This document shows, piece after piece, positions 14,782-53,858 of a DNA stretch of 64,000 nucleotides. A program made the translations under genes and the position numbers. Origin of the DNA: Planctomycetota bacterium (GTDB taxonomy: Bacteria > Planctomycetota > MHYJ01 > JACPRB01); contig DASVNH010000224.1 of assembly GCA_036383955.1 (NCBI GenBank), forward strand, positions 1,008 to 65,007. The letters are read 5' to 3'. Every line of letters starts with the position of its first letter. Within the stretch, counting starts at the first letter, position 1. The notes below the pieces were generated by a model. It did not search any database. It saw nothing but the letters and a program-made list of their open reading frames with translations, and was not told where the DNA came from.

Positions 14782-14787
14782 CCGGCC

Positions 14788-15408: not shown

Positions 15409-15419
15409 GCGCCGAAGAG

Positions 15420-16106: not shown

Positions 16107-16113
16107 GGGGGCC

Positions 16114-37697: not shown

Positions 37698-37922
37698 CGT
37701 CCCGTCGGAGTAAGCGGGGTCCGTCGCCCAATGCCGAGTCTGACTGATTCCTTCGAAACCCTGCGCAGCGAGGTCCGCACTGGAGAGGATCTTTTCGCCG
37801 GTGTAGAAGTTGGTCGGAAAAGAGCTTAGCGCGCAGAAGTTATCGCCGTCCGCGGTCGCGCTGCCGCCGCCGGTGATCGAGGCGCTTACCCCACCGGACT
37901 CCGTCCGGTCGCAGCAGAGTTT

Positions 37923-38075
37923 TCAGCCGGCCGTTGACGAGGCGTAGTCGGTGAAGGTCGCCAGCGTAGTACGTACCACCTCTTCCCACTTGGGAGTGCT
38001 TAGCAGGGAAAGGAAGCCGGCCGCGGCGAAGACCGCCGCCGGTAGGGCCCACGCCAGGATGTTCTTCGCCTTCAT
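37923..38075 (-). CDS. signal-anchor fragment in frame with the Rhs ORF (separated only by TGA)
   Basis: ATG 38075 follows GAGGG and gives MKAKNILAWALPAAVFAAAGFLSLLSTPKWEE.... The TGA at 37925-37923 is followed by 75 sense codons in the same frame, leading into the Rhs ATG at 37697. Confidence 0.5.
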   Translation of the reverse strand: MKAKNILAWALPAAVFAAAGFLSLLSTPKWEEVVRTTLATFTDYASSTAG

Positions 38076-38124: not shown

Positions 38125-39489
38125 CTATCGGGACAGCTGCTTTTCAATCTCGATAATCCGCCGTTCCAGGTTCGCGGTTACCTGCGGGTCCAGCTTTCCA
38201 GACGGCGCGCTTCCGAGCTGACTCTTGAGCCAGTCGAGTTCACCGCGCAGGGGCGCGTCGCGGCGATCCAGCTCCGCCTTTGCCTGTAGCTGCTCGAGTT
38301 CTCGCTCCCGCTGAAGCACCGCCGGCTCCACCGCCGCGAAAGCCCGGGCCGCTTCGGCCTCACCCACGATGGGTTTCCACGTCTCCATTGCCTTCCGCGA
38401 TAACTTGGGGTCAAAAGGCGTGAGTTCCGCCAGCAGTTTCCTGAATGCGGCCTCTCGGACGGCCAGGTCGGACGTCGCCCGAATCACTCTCCCCCAACAG
38501 GACGCGCGCCAGGACGCCTCGGGAAAAGTATTTCCGGGGGTCTGAGCCTGCACCTTCTCCCAGAAGGCGGCCTCGTACGACTTCCCGGCAACCAGCGCCG
38601 AAAGAGTGCCTTCCTCCATCACAATCCCGCAGCCCGTCTCCTTCGCGACTCCCCAAGCGACGGCTTCCCAGAATTTCCCAGCTATTGAGAGGTCCTTTGT
38701 ATGCTCCATCCCCCGCTCGGTGAGATTCCAGTCCTTGGCTTCACGTCCCGAACGGGCTACGCGTACGGCCACCTTTTCCGCTATGTAGGCGATCTCCGCG
38801 TTCACGGGCGCTTCGGCCCACGCCGCGATCAGCTTCGGGAAATCAGGCGAGGCCTTTTCCGCCAGGCCAAGGACGTGTTCGATCCTTGGGGCCGGAGCCT
38901 TGGCGTCTTCAGTCGTCCCTTCGACCCAGTAAGCGCGCCGAATCATCCGAAGCGCCCGATTGAAGTCGTCCGCCTCGATCGAGACTGAGACGGCTGCCTC
39001 AAGGCTGCTTCCCCGATAGACGGAAATCGGCGTCTTTACGAGCCGATCCAATCCCCGTTCGATCTGCGGCTTCCAATACTCGTTCGCGTTCGCGGAACGA
39101 ATCAGAGCCGCGAGTTGCTCCTTTGAACTCCAGCGCGCGAAGCGCGCGAGAAGCTCCTCTGCGATAGGCTCGATACCCGGCTGTGCTCCGGGCACGCGTT
39201 TGATTCGTTCCCAGCCGGTAAACGCCGCATTCTGCACTGGTGCCCACTCGTCCGCCGTGAGACGGTCATGCAGTGTCACCAACAGCCGGGCACCCAGATC
39301 CACGTCCGACGGTGTAGGCTGGTACTTCAACAGCTGCGCCGCGCTTTCCACGAGCACCACCTTTTCCGCGGTGTAGACCGGAAGATGGAGCGTCGTTTCA
39401 TGACCTCGGGGAGCTGATCCTGGACCGAACAGAAACCAAGCCACGACGAGTAGCACGACAGAAGCCAGAAGAAGAGCGAACCATTTCAT
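38125..39489 (-). CDS. hypothetical membrane-anchored protein with C-terminal coiled coil
   Basis: 454 aa with N-terminal TM MKWFALLLASVVLLVVAWFLF and a C-terminal RERELEQLQAKAELDRRD...IIEIEKQL. It ends 49 nt upstream of the Rhs signal-anchor ATG. Confidence 0.6.
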   Translation of the reverse strand: MKWFALLLASVVLLVVAWFLFGPGSAPRGHETTLHLPVYTAEKVVLVESAAQLLKYQPTPSDVDLGARLLVTLHDRLTADEWAPVQNAAFTGWERIKRVPGAQPGIEPIAEELLARFARWSSKEQLAALIRSANANEYWKPQIERGLDRLVKTPISVYRGSSLEAAVSVSIEADDFNRALRMIRRAYWVEGTTEDAKAPAPRIEHVLGLAEKASPDFPKLIAAWAEAPVNAEIAYIAEKVAVRVARSGREAKDWNLTERGMEHTKDLSIAGKFWEAVAWGVAKETGCGIVMEEGTLSALVAGKSYEAAFWEKVQAQTPGNTFPEASWRASCWGRVIRATSDLAVREAAFRKLLAELTPFDPKLSRKAMETWKPIVGEAEAARAFAAVEPAVLQRERELEQLQAKAELDRRDAPLRGELDWLKSQLGSAPSGKLDPQVTANLERRIIEIEKQLSR

Positions 39490-39956: not shown

Positions 39957-41642
39957 TCAGCGCTTGACGCCGAAGAGCCGCTCTCCGCATCGTTCGAGCA
40001 GCTCACGTCCGACCGCGTCCTCGATCAGGGGATCCGAACGAGGATTGACCTTCGAGCAGTAGACGTAGCGCGCCCCTGTCTCTTCGATAGACTTCCTCAA
40101 GTCCTCGATCGTCCGACCGCGGAAGTAGAAGACGGGGCGGGTGTAGTCCGGTCTGTAGATGAGATAGGACTCTCCGCGCGAATGGACAGCCTCGACGATG
40201 TGGAAAAGCACAGGCTCGACGCCAGGCGGCTGGGATTCGAGGATGGAGCCGACCGAACGTTCCCGCCAGCTCATTTTCGCCAACCGGATAGCGTTTTCAA
40301 GACGGTGATCGACCGGGAAAAACGTCGCGGCGAACTGGAACGCCGCCCCCGCCGTAACGAGCCCCAGGACGGGCCTCATCCGCTCCGCCGCCCAGACGGC
40401 CGCGACCGCGAGGACGGACGGGAAGAACAGGACAAAGCGCAGGCACCAGTCATCATGATTCACGAGGAAAAGGACCGACACCAGAGAAACGGACATCCCC
40501 AGCAACACCCGGCCCGCCCTAGGGGTTTCGCGCACCCAGCCCCACAGCGCCAGCGAACCGCACGCGAACGCCACCGCTCCCCAGCCCGAGATGTGGCTCA
40601 ATAGCGCCCCATAGCCCACTTGATCGTCATAGACGCGCACATTGAACAACGCCCGGATGTTCCTCCAACCCGAGCTCAGGCTCGGCCCGAACTGGATCTT
40701 CAGGGTTCCCTCGCCACCGATCAGTCCACGACTCCCCACGGGATGCATCGGATTCCCGAACCAGAGCGCATTGCGCGCGTACCAGAACAGCCCCGGCACC
40801 AGAGCCACCACGCCGACCGGCAGGCCCGTCCCCGCGCTCTTCGCGACTAGCACAAGGAAGCCCGGCAGCGCGTAGCCGTACGTCGGCTTGATCCCGACCC
40901 CCAAAAGCGCGATCGCTGCGACCCACGGCCACGGTGCCTTTGCCAGCAGCAGCGCGAACGTTGATAGGACCAGCGCCGCGATCGGCACGTCGTTCAGGCA
41001 GGACGTCGCGCTCACCTGCAGCCCCGGCGTCAGCGCGTACAGCAGCGCGGCCCAAGCCGAGGCTTTCTCCGACATCCCAAGCTCCCGCGCCAACGCGAAG
41101 CAGGCCGCCGACGCCAGCAGCAGGAACTCCACGCCGGCCAACTCGATTAGGACGTCGTGACGCAAGAACACCACCCACCAGGCTTCAATGAGTTCGAAGC
41201 CCGCGGGAAACGTCGCGTGAGTATCGACGCCCATCTCGCGCGTAAAGCCGCCCGCTCGGATCCATTCCGGGATCTTCGTCAGATGGTAGGACAGCGCGTC
41301 GTGGTTGTGCGGCGCGAAGAACCAGACCTGCAGGAGCAGCCGCAGCAGGACAATCGCCGCCGCGCAGGTCCAAATATAGCCCCAAAACGGAACCCTCGGT
41401 TTCGACACCCGTGGTCGCAGGATCGCCAGGGCCACGACCCCCGCCGCACTCAGCCAGAAACCGTTAAAAGTCCCTGTGGTGCCCGCCGCGATCACCACGA
41501 GCGAAATAAGAAGAAAGCGGGCGACGAAGAAGAGAAGGACGTCGAGATGCCCTTGCCTCGTCCCCCAGCGGCGAACCGCCTCGCGCGCGCACGCGAGAAC
41601 TGCCGCGTTGGCTACAAGCATACCCGCGAGGCCTAGGATCAT
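39957..41642 (-). CDS. polytopic GT-C-fold glycosyltransferase (family 39/83-like, PMT/ArnT-type)
   Basis: 561 aa with more than 10 predicted TM helices, an early loop motif NHDALSYH resembling the GT-C D/E-x-x-x-Y loop, and a C-terminal soluble domain. It is adjacent to a GT2 polyprenyl-phosphate glycosyltransferase-like gene. Confidence 0.55.
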   Translation of the reverse strand: MILGLAGMLVANAAVLACAREAVRRWGTRQGHLDVLLFFVARFLLISLVVIAAGTTGTFNGFWLSAAGVVALAILRPRVSKPRVPFWGYIWTCAAAIVLLRLLLQVWFFAPHNHDALSYHLTKIPEWIRAGGFTREMGVDTHATFPAGFELIEAWWVVFLRHDVLIELAGVEFLLLASAACFALARELGMSEKASAWAALLYALTPGLQVSATSCLNDVPIAALVLSTFALLLAKAPWPWVAAIALLGVGIKPTYGYALPGFLVLVAKSAGTGLPVGVVALVPGLFWYARNALWFGNPMHPVGSRGLIGGEGTLKIQFGPSLSSGWRNIRALFNVRVYDDQVGYGALLSHISGWGAVAFACGSLALWGWVRETPRAGRVLLGMSVSLVSVLFLVNHDDWCLRFVLFFPSVLAVAAVWAAERMRPVLGLVTAGAAFQFAATFFPVDHRLENAIRLAKMSWRERSVGSILESQPPGVEPVLFHIVEAVHSRGESYLIYRPDYTRPVFYFRGRTIEDLRKSIEETGARYVYCSKVNPRSDPLIEDAVGRELLERCGERLFGVKR

Positions 41643-41680: not shown

Positions 41681-41923
41681 ATGTCGAAAACGCTCTGGCC
41701 CGAATTCGTGGTGGCCCTCGGCCTCGTGCTCGTCCGAATCCTCTCCGTCGCGCCCGGCGGCCTCTGGCGCGACTGGCTTTTCTTCCTCGGCCTCTTCGGT
41801 CTCGCCCACGCCCTGGGCGCGCGATCCACGCCCGTCGCGACGACCGCCATGGCCTACCTACTGGCGATCCACGTCGTGGGCCAGCTCCCACACATACTCA
41901 CCGTCTGGGGCATGAGGTTTTAG
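41681..41923 (+). CDS. small membrane protein (80 aa)
   Basis: Two to three hydrophobic helices and strongly G+C-rich third positions. It is on the opposite strand to both neighbours. Confidence 0.4.
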   Translation: MSKTLWPEFVVALGLVLVRILSVAPGGLWRDWLFFLGLFGLAHALGARSTPVATTAMAYLLAIHVVGQLPHILTVWGMRF

Positions 41924-42606
41924 CGGAAGATCGCGCGGTCGAGCATCACCGCGACGGCTCGCACCGCGTCCTTCCAGCCGATCTTCTTGCCTTCCGCGTA
42001 GCCGCGGCGTTCATACGAGATCGGCCGCTCCGCGAATCGCAGGCCCCGCCGGGCCAGCAGCGCCGTCACCTCGGGTTCGAAGCTGAAGCCGTCCGAGCGA
42101 AGCGGAAGCACCCGGGCGATCCGCGCGGGGATCAACTTGTAGCAGGTTACCATGTCCGTGAGATGCCGCGCCGTCAAAAGGTTCGAGAGCCACGTCAGGC
42201 TCCGATTGCCCAGCGTATGCCACCACTCCGCGCGCGAACGCGTCAGATATCGAGACCCATAGACGACATCCGCCCGACCGGCCCGCAGAACCTCGAGCAA
42301 TGCCTCGATATCCGCGGGATCGTATTCGAGGTCCGCGTCCTGCACCACGATGAACGTCCCGGTCGCCCGCTTGAATCCTTCGCGGATCGCCGCGCCTTTC
42401 CCCTGGTTTCGAGATTGCCGCACGACTTTGATGATCGGTGTCCGGCCAGCCAGCAAGTCGAGTTTCTCACGCGTGTGGTCAGTTGAACCGTCATCCACGA
42501 CAACCACCTCGCGGAGCGAGGGCATCGCGAGCACCCGGTTCAGAATCGCTTCGATCGTCGAAGCCTCATTGAAGACCGGCATGATCACGGAGAGGTCCGG
42601 CTGCAT
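41920..42606 (-). CDS. GT2 glycosyltransferase (dolichyl/polyprenyl-phosphate mannosyl/glucosyl-transferase-like)
   Basis: 228 aa with SVIMPVFNE, VVVDDGSTDHT and VQDADLEYDP (DxD-type), typical of the DPM1/ArnC-like GT2 family. Confidence 0.85.
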   Translation of the reverse strand: MQPDLSVIMPVFNEASTIEAILNRVLAMPSLREVVVVDDGSTDHTREKLDLLAGRTPIIKVVRQSRNQGKGAAIREGFKRATGTFIVVQDADLEYDPADIEALLEVLRAGRADVVYGSRYLTRSRAEWWHTLGNRSLTWLSNLLTARHLTDMVTCYKLIPARIARVLPLRSDGFSFEPEVTALLARRGLRFAERPISYERRGYAEGKKIGWKDAVRAVAVMLDRAIFR

Positions 42607-42677
42607 GCGCGAAGATCATAAGGAATTCGCGGCATACGCGGCTCGCAAAACCATCGGTGTGCTACACTCCCCGCCGT

Positions 42678-43196
42678 ATGCGACGCGCCGCTGCCCTGCT
42701 CGCGCTGCTCGCCGCCGGATGCGCGGGCCAGAGCGCCCAGAACTGGCTCGAAGAGGGGAACCGCTTCTTCGACACCGGAGATCCCCAGGGCGCCGTACGG
42801 GCCTACTCCTCCGCGATCGACGTAGACCCTGGGTTCTCGCAAGCATGGAATAACCGGGGGCTCGCGAAAGCCCAGCTCGGAGACCTCGTGGGCGCGCACG
42901 CGGATTACGCCGAGGCTATCCGGCTCGGCCCGTCCGCCGCCGAGGCTCACTACAATCGCGGCGTCGTCTACCTCCAGACCCAAGACGCGTATCGGGCCAT
43001 CGCGGATTTCTCCGACGCCCTCCGCCTGCAGCCCGAGTATCCGCGCGCGCTGGCCGGGCGAGGCTTGGCGCGGGCGAAGGTCGGGGACAAAACTGGTGCG
43101 GCCGACGACTTCAAGAAGGCCCTCGAGCTGTCTTCCCCGGACTGGCCCGAGCGGACCCGCGTCGAAGCCGAGTTGGCTAGGCTCAGCGGGAAATGA
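42678..43196 (+). CDS. TPR-repeat lipoprotein
   Basis: MRRAAALLALLAAGC lipobox, then four TPR units (AWNNRGLA, AHYNRGVVY, ALAGRGLA ...). Confidence 0.8.
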   Translation: MRRAAALLALLAAGCAGQSAQNWLEEGNRFFDTGDPQGAVRAYSSAIDVDPGFSQAWNNRGLAKAQLGDLVGAHADYAEAIRLGPSAAEAHYNRGVVYLQTQDAYRAIADFSDALRLQPEYPRALAGRGLARAKVGDKTGAADDFKKALELSSPDWPERTRVEAELARLSGK

Positions 43197-43659
43197 CGAT
43201 GGACTCCGCCGGCTCGGCGAGCGTCAGCCGCAGGGCTTTCGCGGCGCCCCGGATTTCGCGCGTCCAAGCCTGACCCGTCCACGCTTCCAGGATCACCGGC
43301 TCGTCAAGCAGGGGCATGATCCGCCCGCCCTCCCGCCGCGAGAGCCCGCGGTCGGAAGCGATCCAGCGGATGTCGGAGCCCGCCCGCGCGCCCGTGGCGA
43401 ACGCGTCCGACGTGGTGGCCAGGGCGAGGACCGACGTCCCCGCAGGCGGCCGTTCCGCCGGCACGATCAGCCGCGTCCGGCCCCGCCAGTCTTGCGCGAT
43501 CAGTTCCGCAGCGCGCGACCGCCGCTCTTCCCTCCGCGCGTGCTCCCGGCTATCCTCGGCGGAGCGCGTCAGCCCCAGGGTCGCCGCCGACACCCCGAGC
43601 GTCAGGATCGCCGTGATTGCCACGGCCACCATGACCTCGATCAGCGTAAAGCCTTTCAT
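43183..43659 (-). CDS. T2SS minor pseudopilin (GspJ-like)
   Basis: MKGFTLIEVMVAVAITAIL prepilin-type N-terminus. The ATG at 43659 overlaps the upstream stop (ATGA). It is the last gene of the operon. Confidence 0.6.
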   Translation of the reverse strand: MKGFTLIEVMVAVAITAILTLGVSAATLGLTRSAEDSREHARREERRSRAAELIAQDWRGRTRLIVPAERPPAGTSVLALATTSDAFATGARAGSDIRWIASDRGLSRREGGRIMPLLDEPVILEAWTGQAWTREIRGAAKALRLTLAEPAESIVISR

Positions 43660-44012
43660 CGCGGCCCCGGCGGCCCGTGAAGCAGCTCCGAGCGCTCCAG
43701 AACCTTCGCTCCGCCCGGCCCGTATACCGCCAGAGTCACGCGCTTCAGCCGACTCAGGACGCCGGGCTCCGGCGACGTCCTCAGTTCCCAACGATGTCCG
43801 TCGAAGCCCGCCAGCGCGCCCTCGCGCTGAGCTTCGAGGCCGGACGTCCATTCGGCCAGCCTCGACTCCGCCGCGCGCTCGAGGCGAGCGTCGACCTCCG
43901 CCCCCGCGCTGCGCTTGAGGCTGCCCGCGACGGCCGCCGTCACGAGGACCAGCGAGCCCGCCGCGATGGCGAGCGCCACTAGGATCTCGAGGAGGGTGAA
44001 GCCTTTATTCAT
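43656..44012 (-). CDS. T2SS minor pseudopilin (GspI-like)
   Basis: MNKGFTLLEILVALAIAAG N-terminus, 118 aa. Confidence 0.65.
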   Translation of the reverse strand: MNKGFTLLEILVALAIAAGSLVLVTAAVAGSLKRSAGAEVDARLERAAESRLAEWTSGLEAQREGALAGFDGHRWELRTSPEPGVLSRLKRVTLAVYGPGGAKVLERSELLHGPPGPR

Positions 44013-44418
44013 ACTTCACTCCGCTTAGGAGGGCATCGACAACTACCGCGACGCGGTCGCCGCTCTTGTGGCGGAGCCCGATGGCGCGCGGGTCCGCTAC
44101 GCCCCGGCGGTCGAAGACGAGTTCTCCCGCTTCCTCGAACGTCTGCCCAAAGCCGAGGGTCCCGCCGGACACGCGTTCGTCGGCGGAGGAGGTCACGCTC
44201 CACGCGCGCTCCTTCCAGGCGACGCGGTAGGTCGTCTCGTCGAAGCGCGCGCGCTCGCGCCAGACGCCGAGGGCGCCGCCGAACGCGCGGGCGGAGGCGT
44301 TCAGGGACTGCCGGGGGGTCCAGCCGGACACGCGGAGGACGAGAAAGCCCGAGAGCACGACCACCACCGCCAGGACGACGGTGAGCTCGATCAGGGTGAA
44401 GCCCGCGCGGCGCTTCAT
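44005..44418 (-). CDS. T2SS minor pseudopilin (GspH-like)
   Basis: MKRRAGFTLIELTVVLAVVVVL N-terminus, 137 aa. ATGA overlap with gspG. Confidence 0.65.
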   Translation of the reverse strand: MKRRAGFTLIELTVVLAVVVVLSGFLVLRVSGWTPRQSLNASARAFGGALGVWRERARFDETTYRVAWKERAWSVTSSADERVSGGTLGFGQTFEEAGELVFDRRGVADPRAIGLRHKSGDRVAVVVDALLSGVKYE

Positions 44419-44813
44419 TCATTCGAGAGGTCGGCGTCGAGGCCGGCTCCCCCTTCTTTGCCGTCGGCGCCCAGCGACGTGAGCGTGAACTTGCGGCCCT
44501 GCGCCGCGTAGCGGAAGTCGTTGCCCCACGGATCCTTGGGCACGGCCTTGCCCTTCAGGTAGCCGCCTTCCTGCCAGTTCGCGACGCCGCTGGGCTTCTC
44601 GATCAGCTCCCGCAGCTCCTTCGGCATGCGGCCGGCGTGGGTGTAGAAGGAGACGATCGCCGACTCGATCTGCGCGATCTGCGACTTCGCCGCCGCGACC
44701 TTCGCTTCGTCGGTCTTGCCCGTGTAGCGCACGACGACGAGCGTCGCCAGGATCCCGATGATCGCAACCACGACGATCATCTCGAGGAGCGTAAAGCCGG
44801 CGACGCGTCTCAT
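44415..44813 (-). CDS. gspG: T2SS major pseudopilin GspG
   Basis: MRRVAGFTLLEMIVVVAIIGILA ... PKDPWGN.F.Y ... LGADG.EGG, 132 aa from ATG 44813. Confidence 0.9.
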   Translation of the reverse strand: MRRVAGFTLLEMIVVVAIIGILATLVVVRYTGKTDEAKVAAAKSQIAQIESAIVSFYTHAGRMPKELRELIEKPSGVANWQEGGYLKGKAVPKDPWGNDFRYAAQGRKFTLTSLGADGKEGGAGLDADLSNE

Positions 44814-44821
44814 GTCGTTCC

Positions 44822-46024
44822 CTACTGAAGGTTCGAAAAGTCCGTGATCGGCAGCAGGATCGCCGCCACGATGAAGCCCACCACCAGGCCGAGCAGCACG
44901 ATGATCACGGGGTTGAGCAGGTCCGTCAACCGCGTCGAGGCGACCTCCACCTCGTCGTCGTAGGTCTCGGCGACCTCGCGGAAGACTTCGGCGAGCTCGC
45001 CCGACTCCTCGCCGACGCCGGCGATGAGGCCCACGCTCGACGGCAGCACCCGGCTCCGCTTGAGCGCCTCCGAGAGCGAGGCCCCCTCGAGGACCTCCTT
45101 CTCGAGGCGCGCGACGTCCTCCTCCAGCGCCGCGTTGCCCGCCGCGCCGCGCACGACGGCCAGCGCCTGCGCCACCGGGATGCCGGAGCGCAGCAGCGTC
45201 GACATCGTCCCCGCCCAGCGGGCCGTCGCCTGCTTCCGGAGCAAGTTCCCGAGCACCGGCACGCGCAACAGCAGGCGGTCGCGGGTCTTGCGTCCCACGC
45301 TCTTCGCGCCGATCCATGCCGCGGCGGCGACCCCCGGCACGAGCCACCACCAGGACGTCGAGAGCGCCCCGCTCACGCTGAGCAAAACCTCCGTCGGCCA
45401 CGGCAGCGCGCGCTCCTGCTCGAGGAGGATGGCGGTGACCTTGGGGACGACGAACGTCAGCAGGAACACCAGCACGAGCGCCCCCACAGCGCACATGAGC
45501 GCGGGGTACGTCAGCGCGGAAACGACGCGGTCGCGGATCTTCTTCTGTTTCGTGTAGTAGACGCCGAGCTCGACGAGGACTTTCGCGAGCTCACCCGCCT
45601 GGATGCCGGCCCGCACGATGTGGACGAAGAGATCGGGAAACCAGCGCGGCTGGGCGGCGAGCGCGTCGGCGACGTCGACGCCCTCCCGCACCTTTGCGCG
45701 GACTTCCTCCAGGACGAGCCGGAAGCGCTCGTCCTCGACCTGGGGCCCGAGCGCGGCGAGCGCGTCCGCCATCGGCAGCCCCGTGCGCAGCAGGAGCGCC
45801 CAGTGTCGCGTCATGCGGGCGAGCAGGTCGAGCCGGTGCCCCGAGAGGCTCATCCACGAGGCGCCCCGCGCCCGCGGCTTGGCGGCGGCCTCGACTTCCT
45901 CCAGGTCCACGGGCAAGAGCCCACGCCCACGAAGCTGCGCCCGCGCGTCGGCCAGCGACGGCGCCTCCGCGGTGCCCGTGGCCGTCTTGCCGGCTTCGTC
46001 GATGGCTTCGTACTTGTAGATCAC
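44822..46024 (-). CDS. gspF: T2SS inner-membrane platform protein GspF
   Basis: 400 aa with a duplicated T2SSF domain pattern and three TM segments. Confidence 0.9.
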   Translation of the reverse strand: MIYKYEAIDEAGKTATGTAEAPSLADARAQLRGRGLLPVDLEEVEAAAKPRARGASWMSLSGHRLDLLARMTRHWALLLRTGLPMADALAALGPQVEDERFRLVLEEVRAKVREGVDVADALAAQPRWFPDLFVHIVRAGIQAGELAKVLVELGVYYTKQKKIRDRVVSALTYPALMCAVGALVLVFLLTFVVPKVTAILLEQERALPWPTEVLLSVSGALSTSWWWLVPGVAAAAWIGAKSVGRKTRDRLLLRVPVLGNLLRKQATARWAGTMSTLLRSGIPVAQALAVVRGAAGNAALEEDVARLEKEVLEGASLSEALKRSRVLPSSVGLIAGVGEESGELAEVFREVAETYDDEVEVASTRLTDLLNPVIIVLLGLVVGFIVAAILLPITDFSNLQ

Positions 46025-47595
46025 TCGAGATCCATCTGGGTCACGGCCCAGACCTCCTCGAGCGTGGTCACTCCCTGGGCCACCTTGCGCAGGCCGTCCT
46101 TGCGCAGGGTGACGAAGCCCTTGGCGAGGGCGGCGCGCTTGAGATCGGCGACCGATTCGCGGCGGACGACGCGCTCTCGCAGCTCCTCGGTGACGACGAG
46201 CAGCTCGAAGAGGGCGGCACGGCCCCAGAAGCCCGTCTTGAAGCAGGCGTCGCAGCCGCGGCCGCGAGCTGTTTCACGGCAGCCGAGGGACTCGAGGTAC
46301 GCGACGTCCTCGTCCGACCAGCCGCGCACGCGCATGGCGGCTGGATCGATGGGCGAAATCTCCTTGCAGGACTCGCAGACCCGGCGCGCGAGGCGCTGGG
46401 CGAGGATCGCGTTCACCGAACTCGCGACGAGATAGGGCTCCACGCCAAGGTCGAGCAGGCGAGTGACCGACGAGGGCGCGTCGTTCGTGTGCAGCGTCGA
46501 AAAGACGAGGTGGCCCGTCAGCGAGGACTGGATCGCGATCGTCGCGGTCTCCAGGTCGCGGATTTCGCCGACCATGAGGATGTCGGGGTCCTGCCGGACG
46601 ATCGAGCGCAGGCCCTTGGCAAACGTCATCCCCTTCTTCGAAGAGACCTGCGTCTGCGTCACGCCGGGCAGCTGGTACTCGATCGGGTCCTCAAGCGTGA
46701 GGATGTTGAGCTCCGCCGAGTTGAGCGTCGTCAGCATCGCGTAGAGGGTCGTCGTCTTGCCGCTGCCCGTGGGGCCCGTCACCAGCACGATGCCGTGCAG
46801 CAACTCCAGGACCCGCTTGATTCGGCCCAAGTCGTCGGGCGCGAAGCCCAGGCCGTCGAGCGACATCAGCCCCGACGTCTTGTCTAGCAGTCGCAGCACC
46901 ACGCGCTCGCCGTGCTGGCAGGGCAGCGTCGCCGCGCGCAGGTCCACCCGGCGCTCGCCCACCCTGATCGTCACGCCGCCGTCCTGCGGCAGGCGCCGCT
47001 CGGCGATGTCCATTCGCGCCATCACCTTCACGCGGCTCACCACGCCGTCGAGCGCCTCTCGACGCAGCAGCGCTCGGTCGTAGAGGACGCCGTCGATGCG
47101 GAAGCGCACACGCAGGCCGTCCTCGCCCGGCTCGAGGTGGATGTCGCTCGCCCGCTGCCGGATCGCCTGCAGGATCGTCGCGTGCACCAGCTTGACCGCT
47201 GGGGCCTTGTCGTCGAGGTCGAGGACGTCCTCCGCCAGCACGACCTCGGGCGCGTCATCGTCGGGCGCGATTTCCTTAGCGAGCTGGTCGACCTCCTTCG
47301 CGTGGCCGTGGTAGGCCCGCGCGAGGAGGGCCTGGATCTCCGTCTCGGGCGCGGACACGAGGCGGCACTCGCGGTCGAGCAGGTAGGCGATCTGGTCGGC
47401 GGCGGCCCAGCGCTCGATCTTCCCGAGGGCGAGGCGCTGCTTGCCGTCCTCGCCCGGCCCGATCGCGACGACGGCGTGCTCGCGCGCCATCTTGAGCGGG
47501 ACCTTGTCCAGGAACTCCCGCGGCACGGTCGCGCCGGCGAGATCGACGGCCGGCAAGCCCGCCCGGAGCGACGGCGGCAGGGTTAACGGGTTCAT
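46021..47595 (-). CDS. gspE: T2SS ATPase GspE
   Basis: The C-terminal 524 aa of track ORF 46021..49653: Walker A GPTGSGKTTT, Asp box, Walker B ILMVGEIRD, His box TGHLVFSTLHTN, and a tetracysteine motif CESC...CDAC. The ATG at 47595 overlaps the gspD stop (ATGA). Confidence 0.93.
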   Translation of the reverse strand: MNPLTLPPSLRAGLPAVDLAGATVPREFLDKVPLKMAREHAVVAIGPGEDGKQRLALGKIERWAAADQIAYLLDRECRLVSAPETEIQALLARAYHGHAKEVDQLAKEIAPDDDAPEVVLAEDVLDLDDKAPAVKLVHATILQAIRQRASDIHLEPGEDGLRVRFRIDGVLYDRALLRREALDGVVSRVKVMARMDIAERRLPQDGGVTIRVGERRVDLRAATLPCQHGERVVLRLLDKTSGLMSLDGLGFAPDDLGRIKRVLELLHGIVLVTGPTGSGKTTTLYAMLTTLNSAELNILTLEDPIEYQLPGVTQTQVSSKKGMTFAKGLRSIVRQDPDILMVGEIRDLETATIAIQSSLTGHLVFSTLHTNDAPSSVTRLLDLGVEPYLVASSVNAILAQRLARRVCESCKEISPIDPAAMRVRGWSDEDVAYLESLGCRETARGRGCDACFKTGFWGRAALFELLVVTEELRERVVRRESVADLKRAALAKGFVTLRKDGLRKVAQGVTTLEEVWAVTQMDLE

Positions 47596-49664
47596 TTGGG
47601 GAGCGGCGCCTCGCGGACCGAGGGATCCTTGGGACGGCCGCCCTCGACCTCCAGCCGCATCGCCGGATCCCGCATCATCTGATTCGCGCCACCGGCCTTC
47701 TCGCGCGAGACACTCTTGAGGTCGTCGAAGCCCTCGGCCGAGAGGATGCGCGGCCGCACGAAGAGATAGAGGCGGCTTTTGGTGCGGCGGGCGGACGTCG
47801 AGCCCGCCAGCCAGCCGACCAGCGGGATGTCCATGAGCACCGGGATGCCCGTTCGGGTGTCGGTGACCGAGTCGCGGGTGAAGCCGCCGAGGATGGCGGT
47901 GTGGCGGTCGGGCACGGTAATGAGGGTCTGCACGTTGTTGGAGACCTTGGCGGGCGGCACGCCGGCGGCCTGCGACTCGCCACTGAACTCCTCGAAGCTC
48001 TGGGTGATCCGGAGATTCAGGTAGCCGTCGGGCGAGAGCGTGGGAGTGATCGAGAGCTCGGTGACGGCCTCCGCGAAGCCGGCGAAGGAGGTCACGTTGC
48101 CGACGGTGCCCTGGGAAGTCGCGATTGTCGGCTCGCTGACTTTGGTGGTGAAGGTCGCGGGTTCGTTGTCGTTCACGAGAAGCAGCGGCTGGGAGAGGAT
48201 GTTGACGCCCGCCTTGGTGGAAACCAGCCGGATGAGCGCGCTGATGTCGTCGGGCTTCACGTAGCGGAAGGCTCCGCCTTTGAAGCTGCTGAGGTTGGCC
48301 GTCGTGGGAAAGCCGACGCCACCCGGGTCGGCCTGGGTCGCTCCGCCCGCGATGCCGGCGTTCACCTGGGCGCCGTCCTTCCGGGTGTCCTGGAACAGGA
48401 CGTCGATGCCCGTCTCGAGTGAATCGTCGCCCGTGACCTGCAGGATGGCGACCTCGATGAGCACCTGGCCCTTGCGCTTGTCGAGGTTCTCCAGGATCTT
48501 CTTCACCTCCTCGTGCACCGCGGCGTTCGCGATGACCACGAGCGTGTTCTGGCTTTCGAGCGCGACGACCTCGATGTCGCCGCCGGACGCGGGCGCGACG
48601 GCCTTCTTCTCCGCCGACGGCGCGGGCGGCTCCTGCGGCTCTTCCACGATCGGACGTCCGGCAGGGGCCGGCGGCGTCACCGTAGGCGGCATGACCGGGC
48701 CGCCCGCGAGATCGCGCCGGGGCGCGCCGGAGAGTCCGGCGGGTTTTTTCGACGTCCCCCGCTTCCCGCCCTCGCCCGTCGGCTGAAGGCCGAGGAACTG
48801 GCGGACGCTGTCGGCGATCTCTCCCACCGCCACGTTCTTGAGCTTGTAGTAGCCGATCGTCCGCTGCACGGACGGAAGCTGGCGGTCGATTTGGGTGAGA
48901 TACTCCAGCACGCGCTTGACTTCGACGTCCCGGCCGATCAGGGTCAGCTGGTTGAGCCGTTCGTCGGCGAGCGCCTCGATGCGGGCGCGGCCCACCTCGC
49001 CGGTCTGGATCTTCTCGAGGGCCTGAACGAACTCGCCGACCTGCGTCTTCGCCTGCGAAGCCGCGAGACTCTGGAGGAGCACCGAGGTCACGACGATGGG
49101 CTCGCCGGGCACGTCGACAAGGCCCAGGAGCTTTTCCGCGCGCTGGACGGCCGTCGACGCGTCGATGAGGAGCAGCAAGTCGGAGTTTGGCACGGGCACC
49201 ATCAGGCCGGCGGGAGAAAGCGCGGGCTGGACGACGGCCGCCGCGCGCTGGCCGCTGACGTGCTTGGGGGTGAGGACGTAAAAGATCACGCCTTCGCCCT
49301 GGGGAAGCTTTTCGCCTCGCGCGAGGACGGGCTGGGCGCCGGGTTCCTTGGCGGCCTGCGGGGCGGGCACGATCTTGACGAGGTTGATGTTCTCCTCCGG
49401 GGCGGGCACAAGCGCGAAGCCGTGCAGCAGCGCGACAGACTGAAAGACGCGGTAGAACTCGTCGGGCGTGATGGGCTTCTCGGATCGCAGGGTGACTTTC
49501 TTGCCCTTGAGCAGGGCTTCCTGGAACACGAACGACTTCTTCGTGACCCGCTCGACCTGCTGCGCGAGCGCTTCGAGCTCGATCTCCTCGAACTCGACTT
49601 TGACCTTGTCGTCCTGAACCGGCGGAACCGCCAGCAGAACGAAGAGACTCCATCCCAGCTTCAC
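47592..49664 (-). CDS. gspD: T2SS outer-membrane secretin GspD
   Basis: 690 aa with an N0-like start (VEFEEIELEALAQQVERVTKKSFVF) and a C-terminal secretin block (GIPVLMDIPLVGWL...LYLFVRPRI). Confidence 0.9.
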   Translation of the reverse strand: MKLGWSLFVLLAVPPVQDDKVKVEFEEIELEALAQQVERVTKKSFVFQEALLKGKKVTLRSEKPITPDEFYRVFQSVALLHGFALVPAPEENINLVKIVPAPQAAKEPGAQPVLARGEKLPQGEGVIFYVLTPKHVSGQRAAAVVQPALSPAGLMVPVPNSDLLLLIDASTAVQRAEKLLGLVDVPGEPIVVTSVLLQSLAASQAKTQVGEFVQALEKIQTGEVGRARIEALADERLNQLTLIGRDVEVKRVLEYLTQIDRQLPSVQRTIGYYKLKNVAVGEIADSVRQFLGLQPTGEGGKRGTSKKPAGLSGAPRRDLAGGPVMPPTVTPPAPAGRPIVEEPQEPPAPSAEKKAVAPASGGDIEVVALESQNTLVVIANAAVHEEVKKILENLDKRKGQVLIEVAILQVTGDDSLETGIDVLFQDTRKDGAQVNAGIAGGATQADPGGVGFPTTANLSSFKGGAFRYVKPDDISALIRLVSTKAGVNILSQPLLLVNDNEPATFTTKVSEPTIATSQGTVGNVTSFAGFAEAVTELSITPTLSPDGYLNLRITQSFEEFSGESQAAGVPPAKVSNNVQTLITVPDRHTAILGGFTRDSVTDTRTGIPVLMDIPLVGWLAGSTSARRTKSRLYLFVRPRILSAEGFDDLKSVSREKAGGANQMMRDPAMRLEVEGGRPKDPSVREAPLPK

Positions 49665-49692
49665 GACCCTTCCTCCCTGTTCGATCGAACGG

Positions 49693-50211
49693 CTATCGGT
49701 TGTCGCCCACAGTGGCGGGGAGTTCCTGAGCTCCCTTGTACGTCAGTTTCCATCGGCGGCGTTCGTACTCCACGACCACCGTCTCCCCCACCTCCCGGAG
49801 AACGGCGCCCGTGCCTCCGATCTTGTCGCCGGCCTGGAACGACATCGTCTTCCGCTCCGCGGGCAACTCGAATACGGCGACCGCCGGCTTTGACGCGCCA
49901 TAATCCAAGATCCCCTTGAGTCGGATGAGGGAGTCGATCGGCGCCGGACCGGCCGCGGCCTTTGACGCTTCACGGGGGAGCTCGGCGATGCCCTTTGACA
50001 TCCTCCTGCCGGCCAAGGCTTCGACGGTCGGATTCACGCGGTAACCGGCCCCGACCGGCGTGAGCACGAGGTCGGTCGGCACGCTCGGCAGCGGGTGCCG
50101 AGGTCGACTCGAGAACAGCGCCCAGGCGAGCAGCCCGAGCCCCGCGATGCCGAGCACGGCGAACGAGGCCCAAAGGGTCCGCACGAGACGGTGCTCGCCT
50201 CGGTGGGTCAC
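49693..50211 (-). CDS. GspC-like protein (TM anchor + HR/PilP-like domain)
   Basis: 172 aa with TM WASFAVLGIAGLGLLAWALF and a C-terminal LRLKGILDYG...AVFEL...FQAGDKIGGTGAVLREVGETVVVEY, typical of the secretin-binding HR domain. Confidence 0.5.
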   Translation of the reverse strand: MTHRGEHRLVRTLWASFAVLGIAGLGLLAWALFSSRPRHPLPSVPTDLVLTPVGAGYRVNPTVEALAGRRMSKGIAELPREASKAAAGPAPIDSLIRLKGILDYGASKPAVAVFELPAERKTMSFQAGDKIGGTGAVLREVGETVVVEYERRRWKLTYKGAQELPATVGDNR

Positions 50212-51128
50212 GGAACGATCTCCTCGACAGCCAGGCGCGTGGTGTCGGGCTTGAGGAAAACCCAGGTGTCACGGCTCCGGCCGCGCACATCGCAGGTCAC
50301 CCGGGCCGAGAACGCGGAGGACGTCACGGACAGGAACCCCTGAACCCGTTCGAACAGATTCCGGACGACGCGGAACTCGCCGTTCTCGAAGGTCCGAATC
50401 ACGATTCCGTCGATCAGCATGAGATCCTTGGGCTCCTCGAAGGCTTTGTAGGATCCTTTCTCGCCTTCCCCCTTCCCACGGAAAGCCGCGACGCGTTCGA
50501 CTACGGCTTCGTCGAACCCCTCGTCGAGAGCGAAGATCACGGCCCGTGGAGCGGTGTTGAGGTTGAGGCGGCCATCGCCGAAGCAGGTGACCCAGCGGTG
50601 CAGACCCTGGATTCCGAAGACGTCCTCCGTCGAGAGCCCGGACTCGCGAAGGCCATCGAGGGTCACGAGAGGCTCGTGCGCGGCCAGCCGCTTGAGCAGT
50701 TTCTCCTCGATCTCTTTCAACGCGCGGAGACGCTGTGGTTCGCGGCGTTTGAGGTACTCCAAGAGACGGACAGCTCGCGCGCGGACGGTGCCGCGTTCCT
50801 CGGGCTTTCTCCAGGCCAGCGCGAGGTTGATCTTTCCGCTCTCGTCGGCAAGGACGACCTCGGCGCGCTCGTCGTCGGCGAGGCGGAAATTGGTAGCCCG
50901 GTTCCAAGTGTCTCCCCAGAACACGAACTCGCGGGGCTCCCTCTCGAGGAGGAGACCGCGGGCAACTTCGGCGCCCGAATCGGCGAGCCGGCGAAAGGCG
51001 GCGTCGCGCGCGGCGCGGCCGGTCCTGAGGGTGTCGGCGCTCGCTCGGCTCGCGAGTTCCACCGCTAGGACGGTGAGGATGGAAACGGCTCCCAACACGA
51101 GGACCAGGGCGGCTCCGCGGCGCTTCAC
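50208..51128 (-). CDS. gspK: T2SS minor pseudopilin GspK
   Basis: 306 aa with GAALVLVLGAVSILTVLA, DESGKINL and GRLNLNTAPRAVIFAL, the hallmark GspK blocks. Confidence 0.75.
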   Translation of the reverse strand: MKRRGAALVLVLGAVSILTVLAVELASRASADTLRTGRAARDAAFRRLADSGAEVARGLLLEREPREFVFWGDTWNRATNFRLADDERAEVVLADESGKINLALAWRKPEERGTVRARAVRLLEYLKRREPQRLRALKEIEEKLLKRLAAHEPLVTLDGLRESGLSTEDVFGIQGLHRWVTCFGDGRLNLNTAPRAVIFALDEGFDEAVVERVAAFRGKGEGEKGSYKAFEEPKDLMLIDGIVIRTFENGEFRVVRNLFERVQGFLSVTSSAFSARVTCDVRGRSRDTWVFLKPDTTRLAVEEIVP

Positions 51129-51613
51129 GGCTTCAGCATCGTCGTCACGCGCGCGACGACGACCTCCGCTTCTTCATAGTGATCCGCCCGGGTGGTCGAG
51201 GGCCGGACGTGGATTTCCTTGATCTTGGCGCCGCCACCCTGGGCTTCCAGGTCGCCGAGGAAGCGGACCAGGCTGCCGTGGGCCGGGTGGACGAGGCGAA
51301 CGATGACTTGGCGTTCCTGACGGCCGCGCTCGGCCTCGCGTTCGCTTTCGGAAAGGAAGCCGATGGAGAGGCCGCGTTGGGTGGCCATGTCTTGCGCGAG
51401 CGCCTTGAGAGCGGATTCCCCCGGCGCCAAGCCGGCCGCCCCGAAGGCGCCTGGATGCTTCGCCGCTAGTTTGAGCGCTTCGGCGAGCTCGGTGACGGCC
51501 GCCGAGCGAGCTGCCCGGGTGGTCGAGTGCGCGAGCCCACGCTCGATCGCGAAGCCGGCACCCGCCACGAGCAGAAGGCAGGACGTCGAAAGGTAGACGG
51601 CCGTCTTCCTCAC
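51125..51613 (-). CDS. GspM/PilO-like bitopic protein
   Basis: 162 aa with a single N-terminal TM, and its position between the L-like and K genes. Assigned by architecture and context only. Confidence 0.4.
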   Translation of the reverse strand: MRKTAVYLSTSCLLLVAGAGFAIERGLAHSTTRAARSAAVTELAEALKLAAKHPGAFGAAGLAPGESALKALAQDMATQRGLSIGFLSESEREAERGRQERQVIVRLVHPAHGSLVRFLGDLEAQGGGAKIKEIHVRPSTTRADHYEEAEVVVARVTTMLKP

Positions 51614-52581
51614 GGCTTGAACTCCATGCGGAGCCGCACCTGGACTTGGCCGTCGCGAACCTCATAGTCGCCCCGGGCGCGGAGCTTGTCGGACTGGTTG
51701 AGGTGTCCTTCGAGGGCGGCGGCGTTCTTGAGGGGATCCTCCTTGCCGGCCGGCACGCGGGCGCTTAGCCGTCCGCCTTCCGGCGATAGATCCAGAGACT
51801 CGACGCTCAGGCCGAGCGGTTCGGGATCGGGCAAGTGCTTCCCGATCTCGCCCCAGAAGGCGAGCGCGCTGGGCCCGCTTTCTTCGCCGCCTTCTCCAAG
51901 GCGCGCCTGCAGGGCCCTGGGCAGGCCCGACTCCTTCGGAGGATCGGCGGGCAGCAAGCGCGTCCACAAGTCCAACGTCGCCCGCCTCGTTATCTCCAGG
52001 TCTGCCTCTTCGCGGGCCGTCTCGCGATGGAACCAGACGCCCAGAGCACTCAGCACCAGCGTCGCGGCGGCGGCTACGTTCAGGATGGGCTCGCGTAGCC
52101 TTTCCAGCAGCGCCCTCGTGGCACCCACCATCTTCGACGCCGAATTGGGGACTTGGTCAGGGTCGCACACGGCCACCGCGAACGCCGCAGCGTATTGAAT
52201 CGGAATCGGTCGACCATTCCAGTCCAGCGCCCCTTCGTCGTCAGGGCCATCCGCCGGATACGAGCGTCCCCGCGGAGCGCCCGAGGCGTCGCGCCAAACC
52301 TCGTAGTGTTCCCCGGCCGCGGTAAAGGCACATTCGCCGAAGACATTCGCCAATGCCGCGGTCGAGGAGGTCAGGCAACGTAGTGGAAGCGATCCGATCA
52401 ATTTCATCGGGGCGACGGTCTCGGGAAACGCGGAACTGATCGCGACCGAAATGGGGGCCCCGGACTCCGGGATCGGGGTTCCGGGGGTGAGGATGTCGAA
52501 AGTCGGCGATCCCGAGACGTCGACGATCGCCCGTGAAACGGTCTTCCTTCCGACCGAGACGCCGACCCGGATGGAGCTCAC
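51610..52581 (-). CDS. GspL/PilM-N-like assembly protein
   Basis: GTG 52581 follows AGGAG. VSSIRVGVSVGRKT resembles the actin-like N-terminus. It has a central TM (LNVAAAATLVLSALGVWF) and a periplasmic C-terminus. First gene of the operon. Assigned by architecture and context. Confidence 0.4.
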   Translation of the reverse strand: MSSIRVGVSVGRKTVSRAIVDVSGSPTFDILTPGTPIPESGAPISVAISSAFPETVAPMKLIGSLPLRCLTSSTAALANVFGECAFTAAGEHYEVWRDASGAPRGRSYPADGPDDEGALDWNGRPIPIQYAAAFAVAVCDPDQVPNSASKMVGATRALLERLREPILNVAAAATLVLSALGVWFHRETAREEADLEITRRATLDLWTRLLPADPPKESGLPRALQARLGEGGEESGPSALAFWGEIGKHLPDPEPLGLSVESLDLSPEGGRLSARVPAGKEDPLKNAAALEGHLNQSDKLRARGDYEVRDGQVQVRLRMEFKP

Positions 52582-52815
52582 GGACTGTCTCCTGGTTTCA
52601 ACAAAGTCCGACAATCCCCCGGGAGGCCGATTGTAGCGGGTGTAAACCACGAATCCACATCGAATCGTAGAACCCCTCGGACTCTGCACCTCAAGGGCGA
52701 AACGGCATCGTCACTGGATTCCTTCGGATCGCGGTTGCCGCGCTGGGTCGGGGCACGGACATGACCGAGGCAGAAGATCCGCCAGGAGTCCTGCTTTAGC
52801 CGGGGGCACAAAGTT

Positions 52816-53274
52816 CTACTTGGCCAGCCAAGACAGCGGCAGAATCCCAGTTCGCAGCGCGTAGCGCACCAGCCCGGGGACATCCCGAATCCCGAGCTTA
52901 TTAATGATGAGGAGTCGGTGCGTGTCCACGGTCTTTCTCGAGAGATTGAGCATTCGGGCGATCTGAGCTCCTCGTGTTCCGAGGACAATTTCGCGAAGAA
53001 CCTCGACTTGGCGGCGGGAGAGCGCGGGGTTCTTAGGAGCTTGTTCGGCGGAATCGACCCGCGCGCGATCCGGTAGGGTGCCAATTGCCTCAACAGTAAC
53101 ACCACCCGCCAGCCTGGCTCGGCTCGCGATCAGCGAGAGGGCCTGGGCTTTGCTCAGGGGAGCAGTGACCAACAGCACCCGCGCTTTCGGCTCCGTCGAG
53201 TCGGATTCCCCGGAAAAGGAATGGCGCGCGACTAAGCGCGTCGTTCGGCCTCTCGGTTCTTCCCGCTTGCTCAC
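52816..53274 (-). CDS. LuxR/GerE-type HTH transcriptional regulator (short, non-canonical N-terminus)
   Basis: The C-terminal LSRRQVEVLREIVLGTRGAQIARMLNLSRKTVDTHRLLIINKLGI is a classical GerE HTH. The N-terminal roughly 80 aa are too short for a full receiver domain. Confidence 0.75.
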   Translation of the reverse strand: MSKREEPRGRTTRLVARHSFSGESDSTEPKARVLLVTAPLSKAQALSLIASRARLAGGVTVEAIGTLPDRARVDSAEQAPKNPALSRRQVEVLREIVLGTRGAQIARMLNLSRKTVDTHRLLIINKLGIRDVPGLVRYALRTGILPLSWLAK

Positions 53275-53722: not shown

Positions 53723-53820
53723 GCTGATTGACAAGCCCAAGTCCCTGGGCTAAAGTGCCCTACCCTCGATCCAGCCCCTCGGGGACAGGTAGCTCAGCTG
53801 GTAGAGCACTGCACTGAAAA
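53723..53820 (+). repeat. right direct repeat (promoter block + tRNA-Phe 5' half)
   Basis: See 27073-27168. The leader here is 14 nt (ATCCAGCCCCTCGG). Confidence 0.9.
53728..53756 (+). promoter_or_regulatory. sigma-70-type promoter TTGACA-17-TAAAGT of tRNA-Phe
   Basis: TTGACA at 53728-53733 and TAAAGT at 53751-53756, 26 nt upstream of the mature tRNA 5' end. Confidence 0.6.
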
Positions 53821-53858
53821 TGCAGGGGTCACCGGTTCAACTCCGGTCCTGTCCACCA
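53783..53858 (+). tRNA. tRNA-Phe (anticodon GAA), CCA encoded
   Basis: Hand fold: acceptor GGACAGG/CCTGTCC, D-stem GCTC/GAGC, anticodon stem CTGCA/TGCAG with loop CTGAAAA, T-stem ACCGG/CCGGT, discriminator A, then CCA. Confidence 0.95.

Follow-up and report, generated by a model that had tools for sequence, protein, structure and literature searches.

The 64,000-nucleotide stretch analyzed here (contig DASVNH010000224.1 of assembly GCA_036383955.1, positions 1,008 to 65,007; hereafter the window) is soil metagenome sequence from an uncultured soil planctomycete. Its G+C content is about 69%, with a low-GC block at about 26–40 kb. On the minus strand, eleven same-direction genes run from 52581 down to 43183 in the order gspL-M-K-C-D-E-F-G-H-I-J and encode a genuine type II secretion system (T2SS) of the Gsp type. 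A gene for a polymorphic toxin of the Rhs family lies 5.5 kb downstream of this operon on the same strand. We describe the operon, the toxin gene, an in-frame UGA that most likely encodes selenocysteine, and the recurrence of the two neighbors in related loci, and we consider whether the T2SS exports the toxin.

The gsp operon and its components

The eleven-gene order on one strand, proposed in a first-pass annotation of the sequence, was confirmed by the coordinates of the open reading frames (ORFs), as were the overlaps it described, GTGA at the L/M, M/K and E/F junctions and ATGA at D/E, G/H and I/J. GTGA is also found at K/C, and the H/I overlap is 8 nt. In all, 8 of the 10 junctions overlap by 4–8 nt; gaps of 28 nt and 8 nt separate C/D and F/G, respectively. 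The genes of the operon are translationally coupled. A promoter and terminator scan revealed nothing informative within the operon, and an exact-protein look-up of GspE gave no match. The LuxR-type regulator that had been placed upstream of the operon is present upstream of gspL as a 152-residue LuxR/GerE-type helix-turn-helix protein (52816–53274, minus strand; Pfam GerE, E-value 3.7e-13). The regulator is not conserved: no LuxR homologue was found by tblastn near the operon in the related loci L001–L021.

All components from D to K are best matched by their own Gsp families. The secretin GspD (690 aa, 47592–49664, minus strand, as for all eleven genes) contains the Pfam domains N0 (1.6e-13), Secretin_N (1e-21, three stretches) and Secretin (9e-32), and its best NCBIfam match, GspD at 3.4e-82, lies below the equivalog cut-off, compared with 5.9e-34 for PilQ. 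The ATPase GspE (524 aa, 46021–47595) carries T2SSE (1.5e-133) and MshEN domains and scores 582.7 bits with the NCBIfam GspE model versus 522.4 bits with PilB. The platform protein GspF (400 aa, 44822–46024) shows the same preference, with GspF at 2.9e-105 (352.8 bits) and PilC at 9e-78 (262 bits). The major pseudopilin GspG (132 aa, 44415–44813) exceeds its NCBIfam cut-off (113.6 versus 88.85 bits) and matches Pfam T2SSG at 3.4e-27. The minor pseudopilins GspH (44005–44418; 1.6e-11), GspI (43656–44012; 1.9e-8) and GspJ (43183–43659; 3.4e-6) each carry the N_methyl motif. GspK (306 aa, 50208–51128) aligns over its full length with the NCBIfam GspK model (2.7e-16; Pfam T2SSK 0.002). For these four minor pseudopilins, the matching Gsp model is the best one, and the scores lie below the NCBIfam cut-offs.

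The family assignment of the C- and M-like proteins rests on their orthologues, since the window copies alone give weak or negative results. The GspC-like protein (172 aa, 49693–50211) matches only PilP_fam (0.02), and six of its eight orthologues match Pfam T2SSC (best 1e-6). The GspM-like protein (162 aa, 51125–51613) matches Pfam T2SSM at 0.017; T2SSM is matched by 5 of 11 orthologues (best 1.7e-4) and T2SSM_b by two. The GspC-like protein has room for a transmembrane segment and a homology region (HR) domain and is too short for a PDZ domain. Profile searches of the L-, M- and C-like proteins against Protein Data Bank (PDB) sequences returned only noise (globins, coiled coils).

The L-like protein (323 aa, 51610–52581) has no Pfam, NCBIfam or PDB-sequence match. 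Its AlphaFold2 model (pLDDT 85.6 for the full protein and 91.0 for the N-domain alone) predicts a small two-lobed alpha/beta cytoplasmic domain of the ASKHA/actin-like type, one long transmembrane/coiled-coil helix, and a C-terminal ferredoxin-like periplasmic domain. Foldseek relates the N-domain weakly to ASKHA/actin-like kinase folds and the C-domain to PilO, all with E-values of at least 5.6e-3. A profile of the L family collects 65 clusters (50% identity) among 1.84 billion protein representatives, and its most remote members carry PilM_2 (5.8e-11), T2SSL (5.4e-3) or GspL_C (0.015). The protein resembles a fusion of PilM- and PilN-type parts, the arrangement of GspL, and we take it to be GspL-like from its position, its modeled architecture and this weak transitive homology. 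The proposed L assignment is supported by architecture and weakly by distant relatives, but not by a direct match to a sequence model. The L family occurs in 3 of 185,579 species genomes, all of them metagenome-assembled genomes (MAGs) labeled "uncultured Planctomycetales", as well as in a few contigs from soil metagenomes. It marks the present T2SS subtype.

On this basis, the machine comprises the secretin GspD, a GspG pseudopilus tipped by H-I-J-K, the GspE ATPase, GspF, and an L-M-C assembly platform with a putative GspL. The description of the system as complete holds for the components C to M, with L assigned indirectly, but not for a prepilin peptidase. A further gene, which converges on gspJ with a 14-nt overlap, encodes a TPR lipoprotein with the lipobox LLAAGC (42657–43196, plus strand); its best NCBIfam match is PilW (4.8e-15, below cut-off), with Tgl at 1.2e-7. 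Homologues adjoin the operon in seven related loci (L003, L004, L005, L010, L011, L012 and L013). Judging from these matches, the lipoprotein is probably a secretin pilotin of the PilW/PilF/Tgl type.

The set C, D, E, F, G, H, I, J, K, L and M is the one known from the proteobacterial Gsp, Pul, Eps and Xcp systems, and the N0 secretin, the MshEN-type N-domain of GspE, the N-methylation motif of the pseudopilins and the translationally coupled operon are also shared with them. The present system differs in its planctomycete host, in its gene order, in a GspC lacking space for PDZ, in a GspL that sequence models do not recognize, and in that most of its proteins score below the NCBIfam equivalog cut-offs. 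It also has no gspO, gspN or gspS in the window, and a PilW/Tgl-like TPR lipoprotein occupies the pilotin position. The gene order had been called non-canonical. It is real and a conserved trait of the clade, but gene order often varies between T2SS loci. A literature search on T2SS and GspL retrieved no paper mentioning Planctomycetes, and T2SS biology in this phylum appears to be little studied.

The Rhs gene and its in-frame UGA

The Rhs gene (31872–38075, minus strand) comprises 2067 codons if the TGA at 37923–37925 is decoded. It consists of a signal-like N-terminus (38075–37926), a U/CxxC motif, a DUF6531 domain, a YD shell, an Rhs core and a variable C-terminal domain at about 31875–32525. 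The core matches Rhs_assc_core at 6.7e-16 (TIGR03696, 58.6 bits; cut-off 32.5) and ends in ...SLDPEGL, a DPxGL-type end. DUF6531 is carried by P0027, the database copy of the window Rhs; Pfam RHS_repeat gave no score on the window copy. PAAR, VgrG, two-partner secretion (TPS) or LXG domains were not reported by Pfam or NCBIfam, which returned only DUF6531 and the Rhs core. Homologues are 42–55% identical and differ in their C-terminal domains, which include Aspzincin_M35 (L003), Tox-WTIP (the P0017 locus) and, for L001a, L001b and the window copy, tails that bear no relation to each other. When the N-terminal 525 residues were used to search for homologues, nothing matched, probably because too few 5-residue words are shared at such divergence.

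The listed ORF (31872–37697) begins with MGPGWRNGF and has no leader. Upstream of it, the Rhs frame runs on without a start codon to the TGA at 37923–37925, which terminates a 50-codon ORF (37923–38075) starting MKAKNILAWALPAAVFAAAGFLSLLS... This N-terminal leader is conserved across the homologues. The first-pass annotation had described the Rhs protein as signal-bearing. The signal-like N-terminus and the Rhs core are real, but they lie in separate ORFs that are joined only by reading through the TGA.

The same site is occupied by an in-frame TGA in three homologues from other samples that are 46–53% identical (L018, 9827–9829; L019, about 1428–1430; L020, about 1855–1857). The contexts are ..STAG-U-KLCC in the window, ..ITVG-U-DCCK in L018, ..LTLG-U-VICV in L019 and ..STVG-U-EFGCC in L020, and the stop at this position is always TGA, never TAA or TAG. 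In the uninterrupted homologues (P0029, P0039, P0036, P0038, L001a and L001b), the site holds a cysteine of a CxxC motif, for example ..TVG-C-GIC in P0029, ..SVG-C-ELC in P0039, and CWRC and CVRC in L001a/b. Downstream of the UGA, a 6–7-bp hairpin with the loop CG[G/U][G/A]N starts after 13–20 nt in all four genes; in the window, it is a 7-bp hairpin at 37893–37909, 13 nt after the UGA. Five of the six stem positions show compensatory changes. In a direct hairpin scan, such structures occur at 5–8% of the codon positions of these genes, and their presence in four of four by chance has a probability of about 1.6e-5. The UGA and hairpin (37893–37925, minus strand) are therefore candidates for a selenocysteine codon and a bacterial selenocysteine insertion sequence (SECIS). 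Rfam, run in e-value mode around the UGA, found no SECIS family match. TGA is otherwise an ordinary stop codon in the window.

Because of the conserved UGA, the aligned cysteine of CxxC and the covarying hairpin, we propose that this codon is most likely read as selenocysteine, as part of a UxxC motif that closely follows the leader. If so, the window Rhs gene is intact, and gene callers split such genes, thereby hiding their signal peptides. The split yields an ORF of 47–50 residues and a "leaderless" Rhs. A UGA aligned with a cysteine of CxxC and followed by a 3′ hairpin is also seen in bacterial redox selenoproteins that pair selenocysteine and cysteine (UxxC, with a SECIS in the coding region). 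In those cases the carrier is an oxidoreductase, in contrast to the toxin of about 2000 residues here, for which export is proposed. A literature search linking Rhs with selenocysteine found no report. Selenocysteine in an exported polymorphic toxin would widen its use beyond oxidoreductases.

Recurrence of the neighborhood and possible export of Rhs

The T2SS–Rhs neighborhood was assessed in 12 informative T2SS loci, the window included, the relatives being uncultured Planctomycetales from soil, with Rhs genes counted within 10 kb. The gene order L-M-K-C-D-E-F-G-H-I-J is kept in every related locus long enough to show all genes, and the order together with the TPR gene was seen in the L003, L004, L005, L010, L012, P0011, P0014 and P0017 loci. 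Within a narrow clade, the operon, its TPR gene and the arrangement of the genes are all retained. One to three Rhs genes of about 2000 residues lie within 10 kb in 8 of the 12 loci. The occurrence of the same operon in relatives without an adjacent Rhs gene had been named as an argument against a connection. With 8 of 12 loci positive and the three clear negatives having short flanks, this was largely not observed.

The position of the Rhs genes varies. In the window, the gene follows the operon; L001/L002 have two, of which one adjoins the operon on its upstream side and the other follows gspK directly; in L003 and L008, the Rhs gene is upstream of the operon. In L004, it is convergent and 0.8 kb after gspJ, and the P0017 locus has the Rhs with the Tox-WTIP domain upstream. 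The P0011 locus contains three genes of about 2000 residues, two of which (P0037 and P0038) are confirmed members of the Rhs family. In L019, from the same MAG as L006, the Rhs gene lies about 9.7 kb from the operon, with an integrase/primase/toxin-antitoxin segment between them. L012 is a probable ninth case, since an ORF whose N-terminus is of the Rhs type begins 0.3 kb past the TPR gene. By our tally, about 12 Rhs genes occur in about 136 kb of T2SS flank. We infer that the enrichment near the operon is large, as an equal density genome-wide would amount to hundreds of copies. About 13 members make up the close Rhs family, which is lineage-restricted and occurs in some of the samples that contain the L family and in one shared MAG. 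The single co-localization in the window thus becomes a conserved, non-obligatory neighborhood, which strengthens the idea of Rhs export.

Three genes lie between the TPR gene and Rhs, all on the minus strand. The first (41920–42606) resembles a family 2 glycosyltransferase (GT2) of the polyprenyl-phosphate-sugar synthase type (Pfam Glycos_transf_2, 8e-37; NCBIfam matches to AglJ, PpgS and ArnC), and the second (39957–41642, 561 aa) a PMT/GT-C-like glycosyltransferase with multiple transmembrane segments (Pfam PMT, 7.7e-4). As a pair, they are suggestive of glycosylation in the periplasm, where they may modify an exported protein, for example the S/T-rich N-region of Rhs or the pseudopilins. 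The pair recurs near the T2SS in L012. The third gene (38125–39489), directly upstream of Rhs, encodes a 454-aa protein that combines an N-terminal transmembrane segment with a coiled coil at the C-terminus. Pfam, NCBIfam and the PDB provide no match for it, a PDB profile search giving only noise. By tblastn synteny, its gene directly precedes Rhs in the window, L018, L019 and L020, and homologues stand beside the operon in L007 and L012. Upstream of the 454-aa gene, L018 has the GT-C gene, and L007 and L021 each have one of PMT type. The 454-aa protein may be an Rhs accessory or adaptor. A GT-C-type gene upstream of both the 454-aa gene and Rhs is seen in L018 and L021.

We propose that the T2SS encoded by the operon exports the neighboring Rhs toxins, and consider this about an even chance (probability roughly 0.5). 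In the proposed mechanism, the TPR lipoprotein would act as the secretin pilotin. The Rhs protein, with its UGA read as selenocysteine in the UxxC motif, would enter the periplasm through the Sec pathway by means of its conserved hydrophobic leader and fold there into a YD cocoon. The T2SS would then carry it across the outer membrane. The GT2/GT-C pair and the 454-aa protein could serve as accessory factors in modification or handling, traveling with the Rhs gene. Since Rhs is often unlinked, the T2SS, if it is the exporter, must also act in trans, so that it would serve linked Rhs proteins in cis and those on mobile elements in trans.

Several observations weigh against this proposal. Co-localization is the only link between the T2SS and Rhs at the locus. 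No Rhs gene was found near the T2SS in L005, L007 and P0014, where the flanks span only 1–9 kb. Among six further Rhs contigs, only P0028/L019 is near the operon; the other five (P0031, P0033, P0034/35, P0039 and P0040) show no T2SS within flanks of at most about 10 kb per side, and linkage is therefore frequent but not obligatory in cis. P0031 is accompanied by an integrase and a TraG-type gene, P0039 by TraU, TraI_2 and TraG, and P0040 by a DnaG-type primase, so that two or three of the five bear genes of conjugative elements. The Rhs modules are thus mobile cargo that is often unlinked, with some of the linkage possibly arising from insertion into a permissive region. A folded Rhs cocoon of about 220 kDa would be a very large T2SS substrate, and the leader could be a membrane anchor instead of a cleaved signal. 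Regarding the machine itself, L is GspL-like by architecture more than by sequence, and no prepilin peptidase (GspO/PilD, Peptidase_A24) was found among the approximately 45 window ORFs scanned. A prepilin peptidase gene is frequently encoded away from the T2SS operon.

These points lead to the main alternative explanation, in which the T2SS is an ordinary general-purpose one, secreting for example hydrolases, and has no role in Rhs secretion. Rhs would then be independent mobile cargo that tends to insert into, or recombine around, the same flexible region and leaves the cell by lysis, vesicles, surface anchoring or an unknown partner. We regard this as a serious possibility, though it falls short of an even chance. 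It is consistent with the integrase, Tra, primase and toxin-antitoxin genes that accompany Rhs homologues lacking a nearby T2SS, and with the composition of the window, where the Rhs block is foreign and gspD/E/F look native (G+C at third codon positions, GC3, of 0.62 against 0.90–0.97 for the host). L007 resembles an "empty site" version of L001, and orphan Rhs C-terminal fragments in L019 indicate recombination activity. However, the Rhs genes stand upstream of gspL, directly after gspK, after gspJ and the TPR gene, or in convergent orientation, and a single att site or integration hot spot therefore does not explain the linkage. The enrichment near one operon of about 10 kb is also very large for a low-copy family, and the window has neither an integrase nor an att repeat. 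Export by a conjugative type IV secretion system, suggested by the Tra genes near Rhs in two contexts, was rejected as unlikely in view of the N-terminal Sec-type leader.

Two more radical alternatives would remove either the toxin or the machine. The window Rhs could be a dead gene whose TGA is a nonsense mutation parting the signal peptide from the body. The gene caller did split the gene, with P0027 beginning after the TGA, no selenocysteine machinery gene (selA, selB, selC or selD) is visible in the 64-kb window, and Rfam recognized no SECIS. We nevertheless consider a dead gene improbable. The same TGA recurs in three divergent homologues from other samples, the uninterrupted ones have cysteine there, and a hairpin of at least 6 bp with compensatory changes follows in four of four. 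An independent assembly (about 10x depth) has an identical TGA region, and other planctomycetes carry the full selenocysteine machinery (PMC4807772). Alternatively, the locus might encode a type IV pilus, a Tad system or another type IV filament machine, not a secretion system. D, E, F, H, I, J and K stay below the NCBIfam equivalog cut-offs, the fold search with L reached PilO- and PilM-like folds, and the TPR lipoprotein resembles PilW/Tgl of type IV pili. This is very improbable. Wherever a component is common to both kinds of system, its Gsp model scores higher than its Pil model; GspG passes its cut-off, and GspK- and GspC-type proteins are present. L resembles GspL in its fused architecture, and no PilT, separate PilMNOP genes or other type IV pilus components were found among the scanned ORFs. 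We therefore reject a pilus or Tad identity on family scores and gene content, in answer to the concern that the L-, M- and C-like genes might fail family assignment and the locus group with such systems; for C and M, the orthologue matches to T2SSC and T2SSM speak against that concern.

Returning to Rhs export by the T2SS, Rhs toxins are usually assigned to type VI (T6SS), type V-like (T5SS-like), type VII (T7SS) or Tc routes. The absence of T6SS, T7SS or CdiB partners was corroborated, with no T6SS, T5SS or T7SS gene among the scanned window ORFs; T6SS genes (PAAR, VgrG, Hcp or other) were not found in the related loci either. The protein resembles the PAAR/VgrG-linked Rhs proteins of T6SS, WapA and the Tc components TcB/TcC in its YD shell, DPxGL core end, variable C-terminal toxin and orphan cassettes, but differs in its N-terminal hydrophobic leader and in the lack of T6SS genes. 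A T2SS exporting an Rhs-type toxin had been called an undescribed delivery route, which is overstated. Bcn-A of Xanthomonas perforans, a 1398-aa Rhs/YD bacteriocin with teneurin-like features, loses its activity in an xpsD mutant (Marutani-Hert et al. 2020, PMC7259588), so that its extracellular activity needs the T2SS secretin. Both proteins are large and of the YD/Rhs type. For Bcn-A, linkage to xps has not been reported, whereas the present family is known from sequence alone and has a conserved gsp neighborhood, about 2000 residues, DUF6531 and CxxC/UxxC. We found no other experimental precedent in the literature for an Rhs-type protein that depends on a T2SS for its export. "T2SS" is the commonest polymorphic-toxin route according to Zhang et al. 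2012 (PMC3482391), who defined it by a signal peptide alone, entered "-" for signature genes in the neighborhood and included planctomycetes among the hosts. The signal peptide, RHS repeats and polymorphic C-terminal toxin of this T2SS/Sec-dependent class are shared here, but in the present case a specific Gsp operon is a recurrent neighbor.

A more specific form of the proposal is a dedicated T2SS–Rhs system with its own TPR pilotin in a narrow planctomycete lineage. Its toxins would be marked by the leader and CxxC/UxxC as a recognition, tethering or quality-control element (e.g., a transient selenenyl-sulfide link) and handled by the GT2/GT-C pair and the 454-aa protein. We put this forward as doubtful, though possible. 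No report of such a recurrent coupling of Rhs with a divergent planctomycete gsp operon and a leader-proximal CxxC/UxxC was found in the literature. Such a dedicated system, if real, would provide the first selenoprotein toxin linked to a secretion system and, for Rhs, a T2SS route that is defined genomically. The recurrent neighbors form a concrete, testable substrate–machine pair, and T2SS export of Rhs would raise the known size limit for T2SS cargo.

Genomic setting and further observations

The operon had been described as carried inside a tRNA-bounded insert. This is rejected. The window has a single tRNA, tRNA-Phe(GAA) (53783–53858, plus strand; ARAGORN, and Rfam at 74.3 bits), and the operon lies on its 5′ side. 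No repeat of the tRNA 3′ end and no integrase were found within the window. The GC3 of gspD/E/F is 0.90–0.95, the same as that of the flanking housekeeping genes (0.90–0.97), whereas gspL (0.76) and the LuxR gene (0.68) are lower. In L004, the operon adjoins dnaN and gyrB. Rhs and its left neighbors, with GC3 of 0.62–0.70, are clearly foreign, and strongly deviant composition is confined to about 27.1–39.5 kb. No mobility gene that could account for the acquisition of the low-GC block was found in the window.

In related contexts, Rhs modules are accompanied by genes for integrase, DnaG-type primase, TraG/TraU/TraI_2 and toxin-antitoxin pairs, resembling integrative and conjugative elements (L018, L019 and the P0039 locus; the respective genes lie at 3866–4792 and 16624–17862 in L018 and at 8398–13042 in L019). 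L019 also contains two orphan Rhs core-end fragments (13340–13444 and 14868–14978), which are typical of C-terminal domain displacement. In L001, a 360-kb JGI contig, the 2044-aa Rhs gene directly after gspK (region 11682–19013) and a subsequent HEAT-repeat gene stand where gspC is expected.

In L001, L003, L018, L019 and L021, the genes behind Rhs are small or of the HEAT type. HEAT-repeat proteins with signal-like N-termini occupy the position of an immunity gene in L001 (19113–21194), L003 (6603–9356) and L021 (16166–17176). After the window Rhs, no same-strand immunity ORF of at least 70 aa was found clear of the convergent genes (29260–31634, plus strand). A 421-aa protein from this plus-strand region, convergent with Rhs, has the N-terminal motif LVERLG..D...A...L..LG as its sole similarity to the HEAT proteins of L001 and L003.

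At the other end of the window, a 1703-aa ORF (58798–63909, minus strand) has a host-like GC3 of 0.97 and no Pfam match at E ≤ 0.001; the tests applied here revealed no relationship with Rhs. On its left side (27.1–31.9 kb, GC 0.53–0.57), the low-GC block encodes proteins of 406, 370 and 421 aa without family assignment and includes the gene at 27346–28566 (minus strand). The left edge of the block abuts a peptidase S9 gene (24928–27090).

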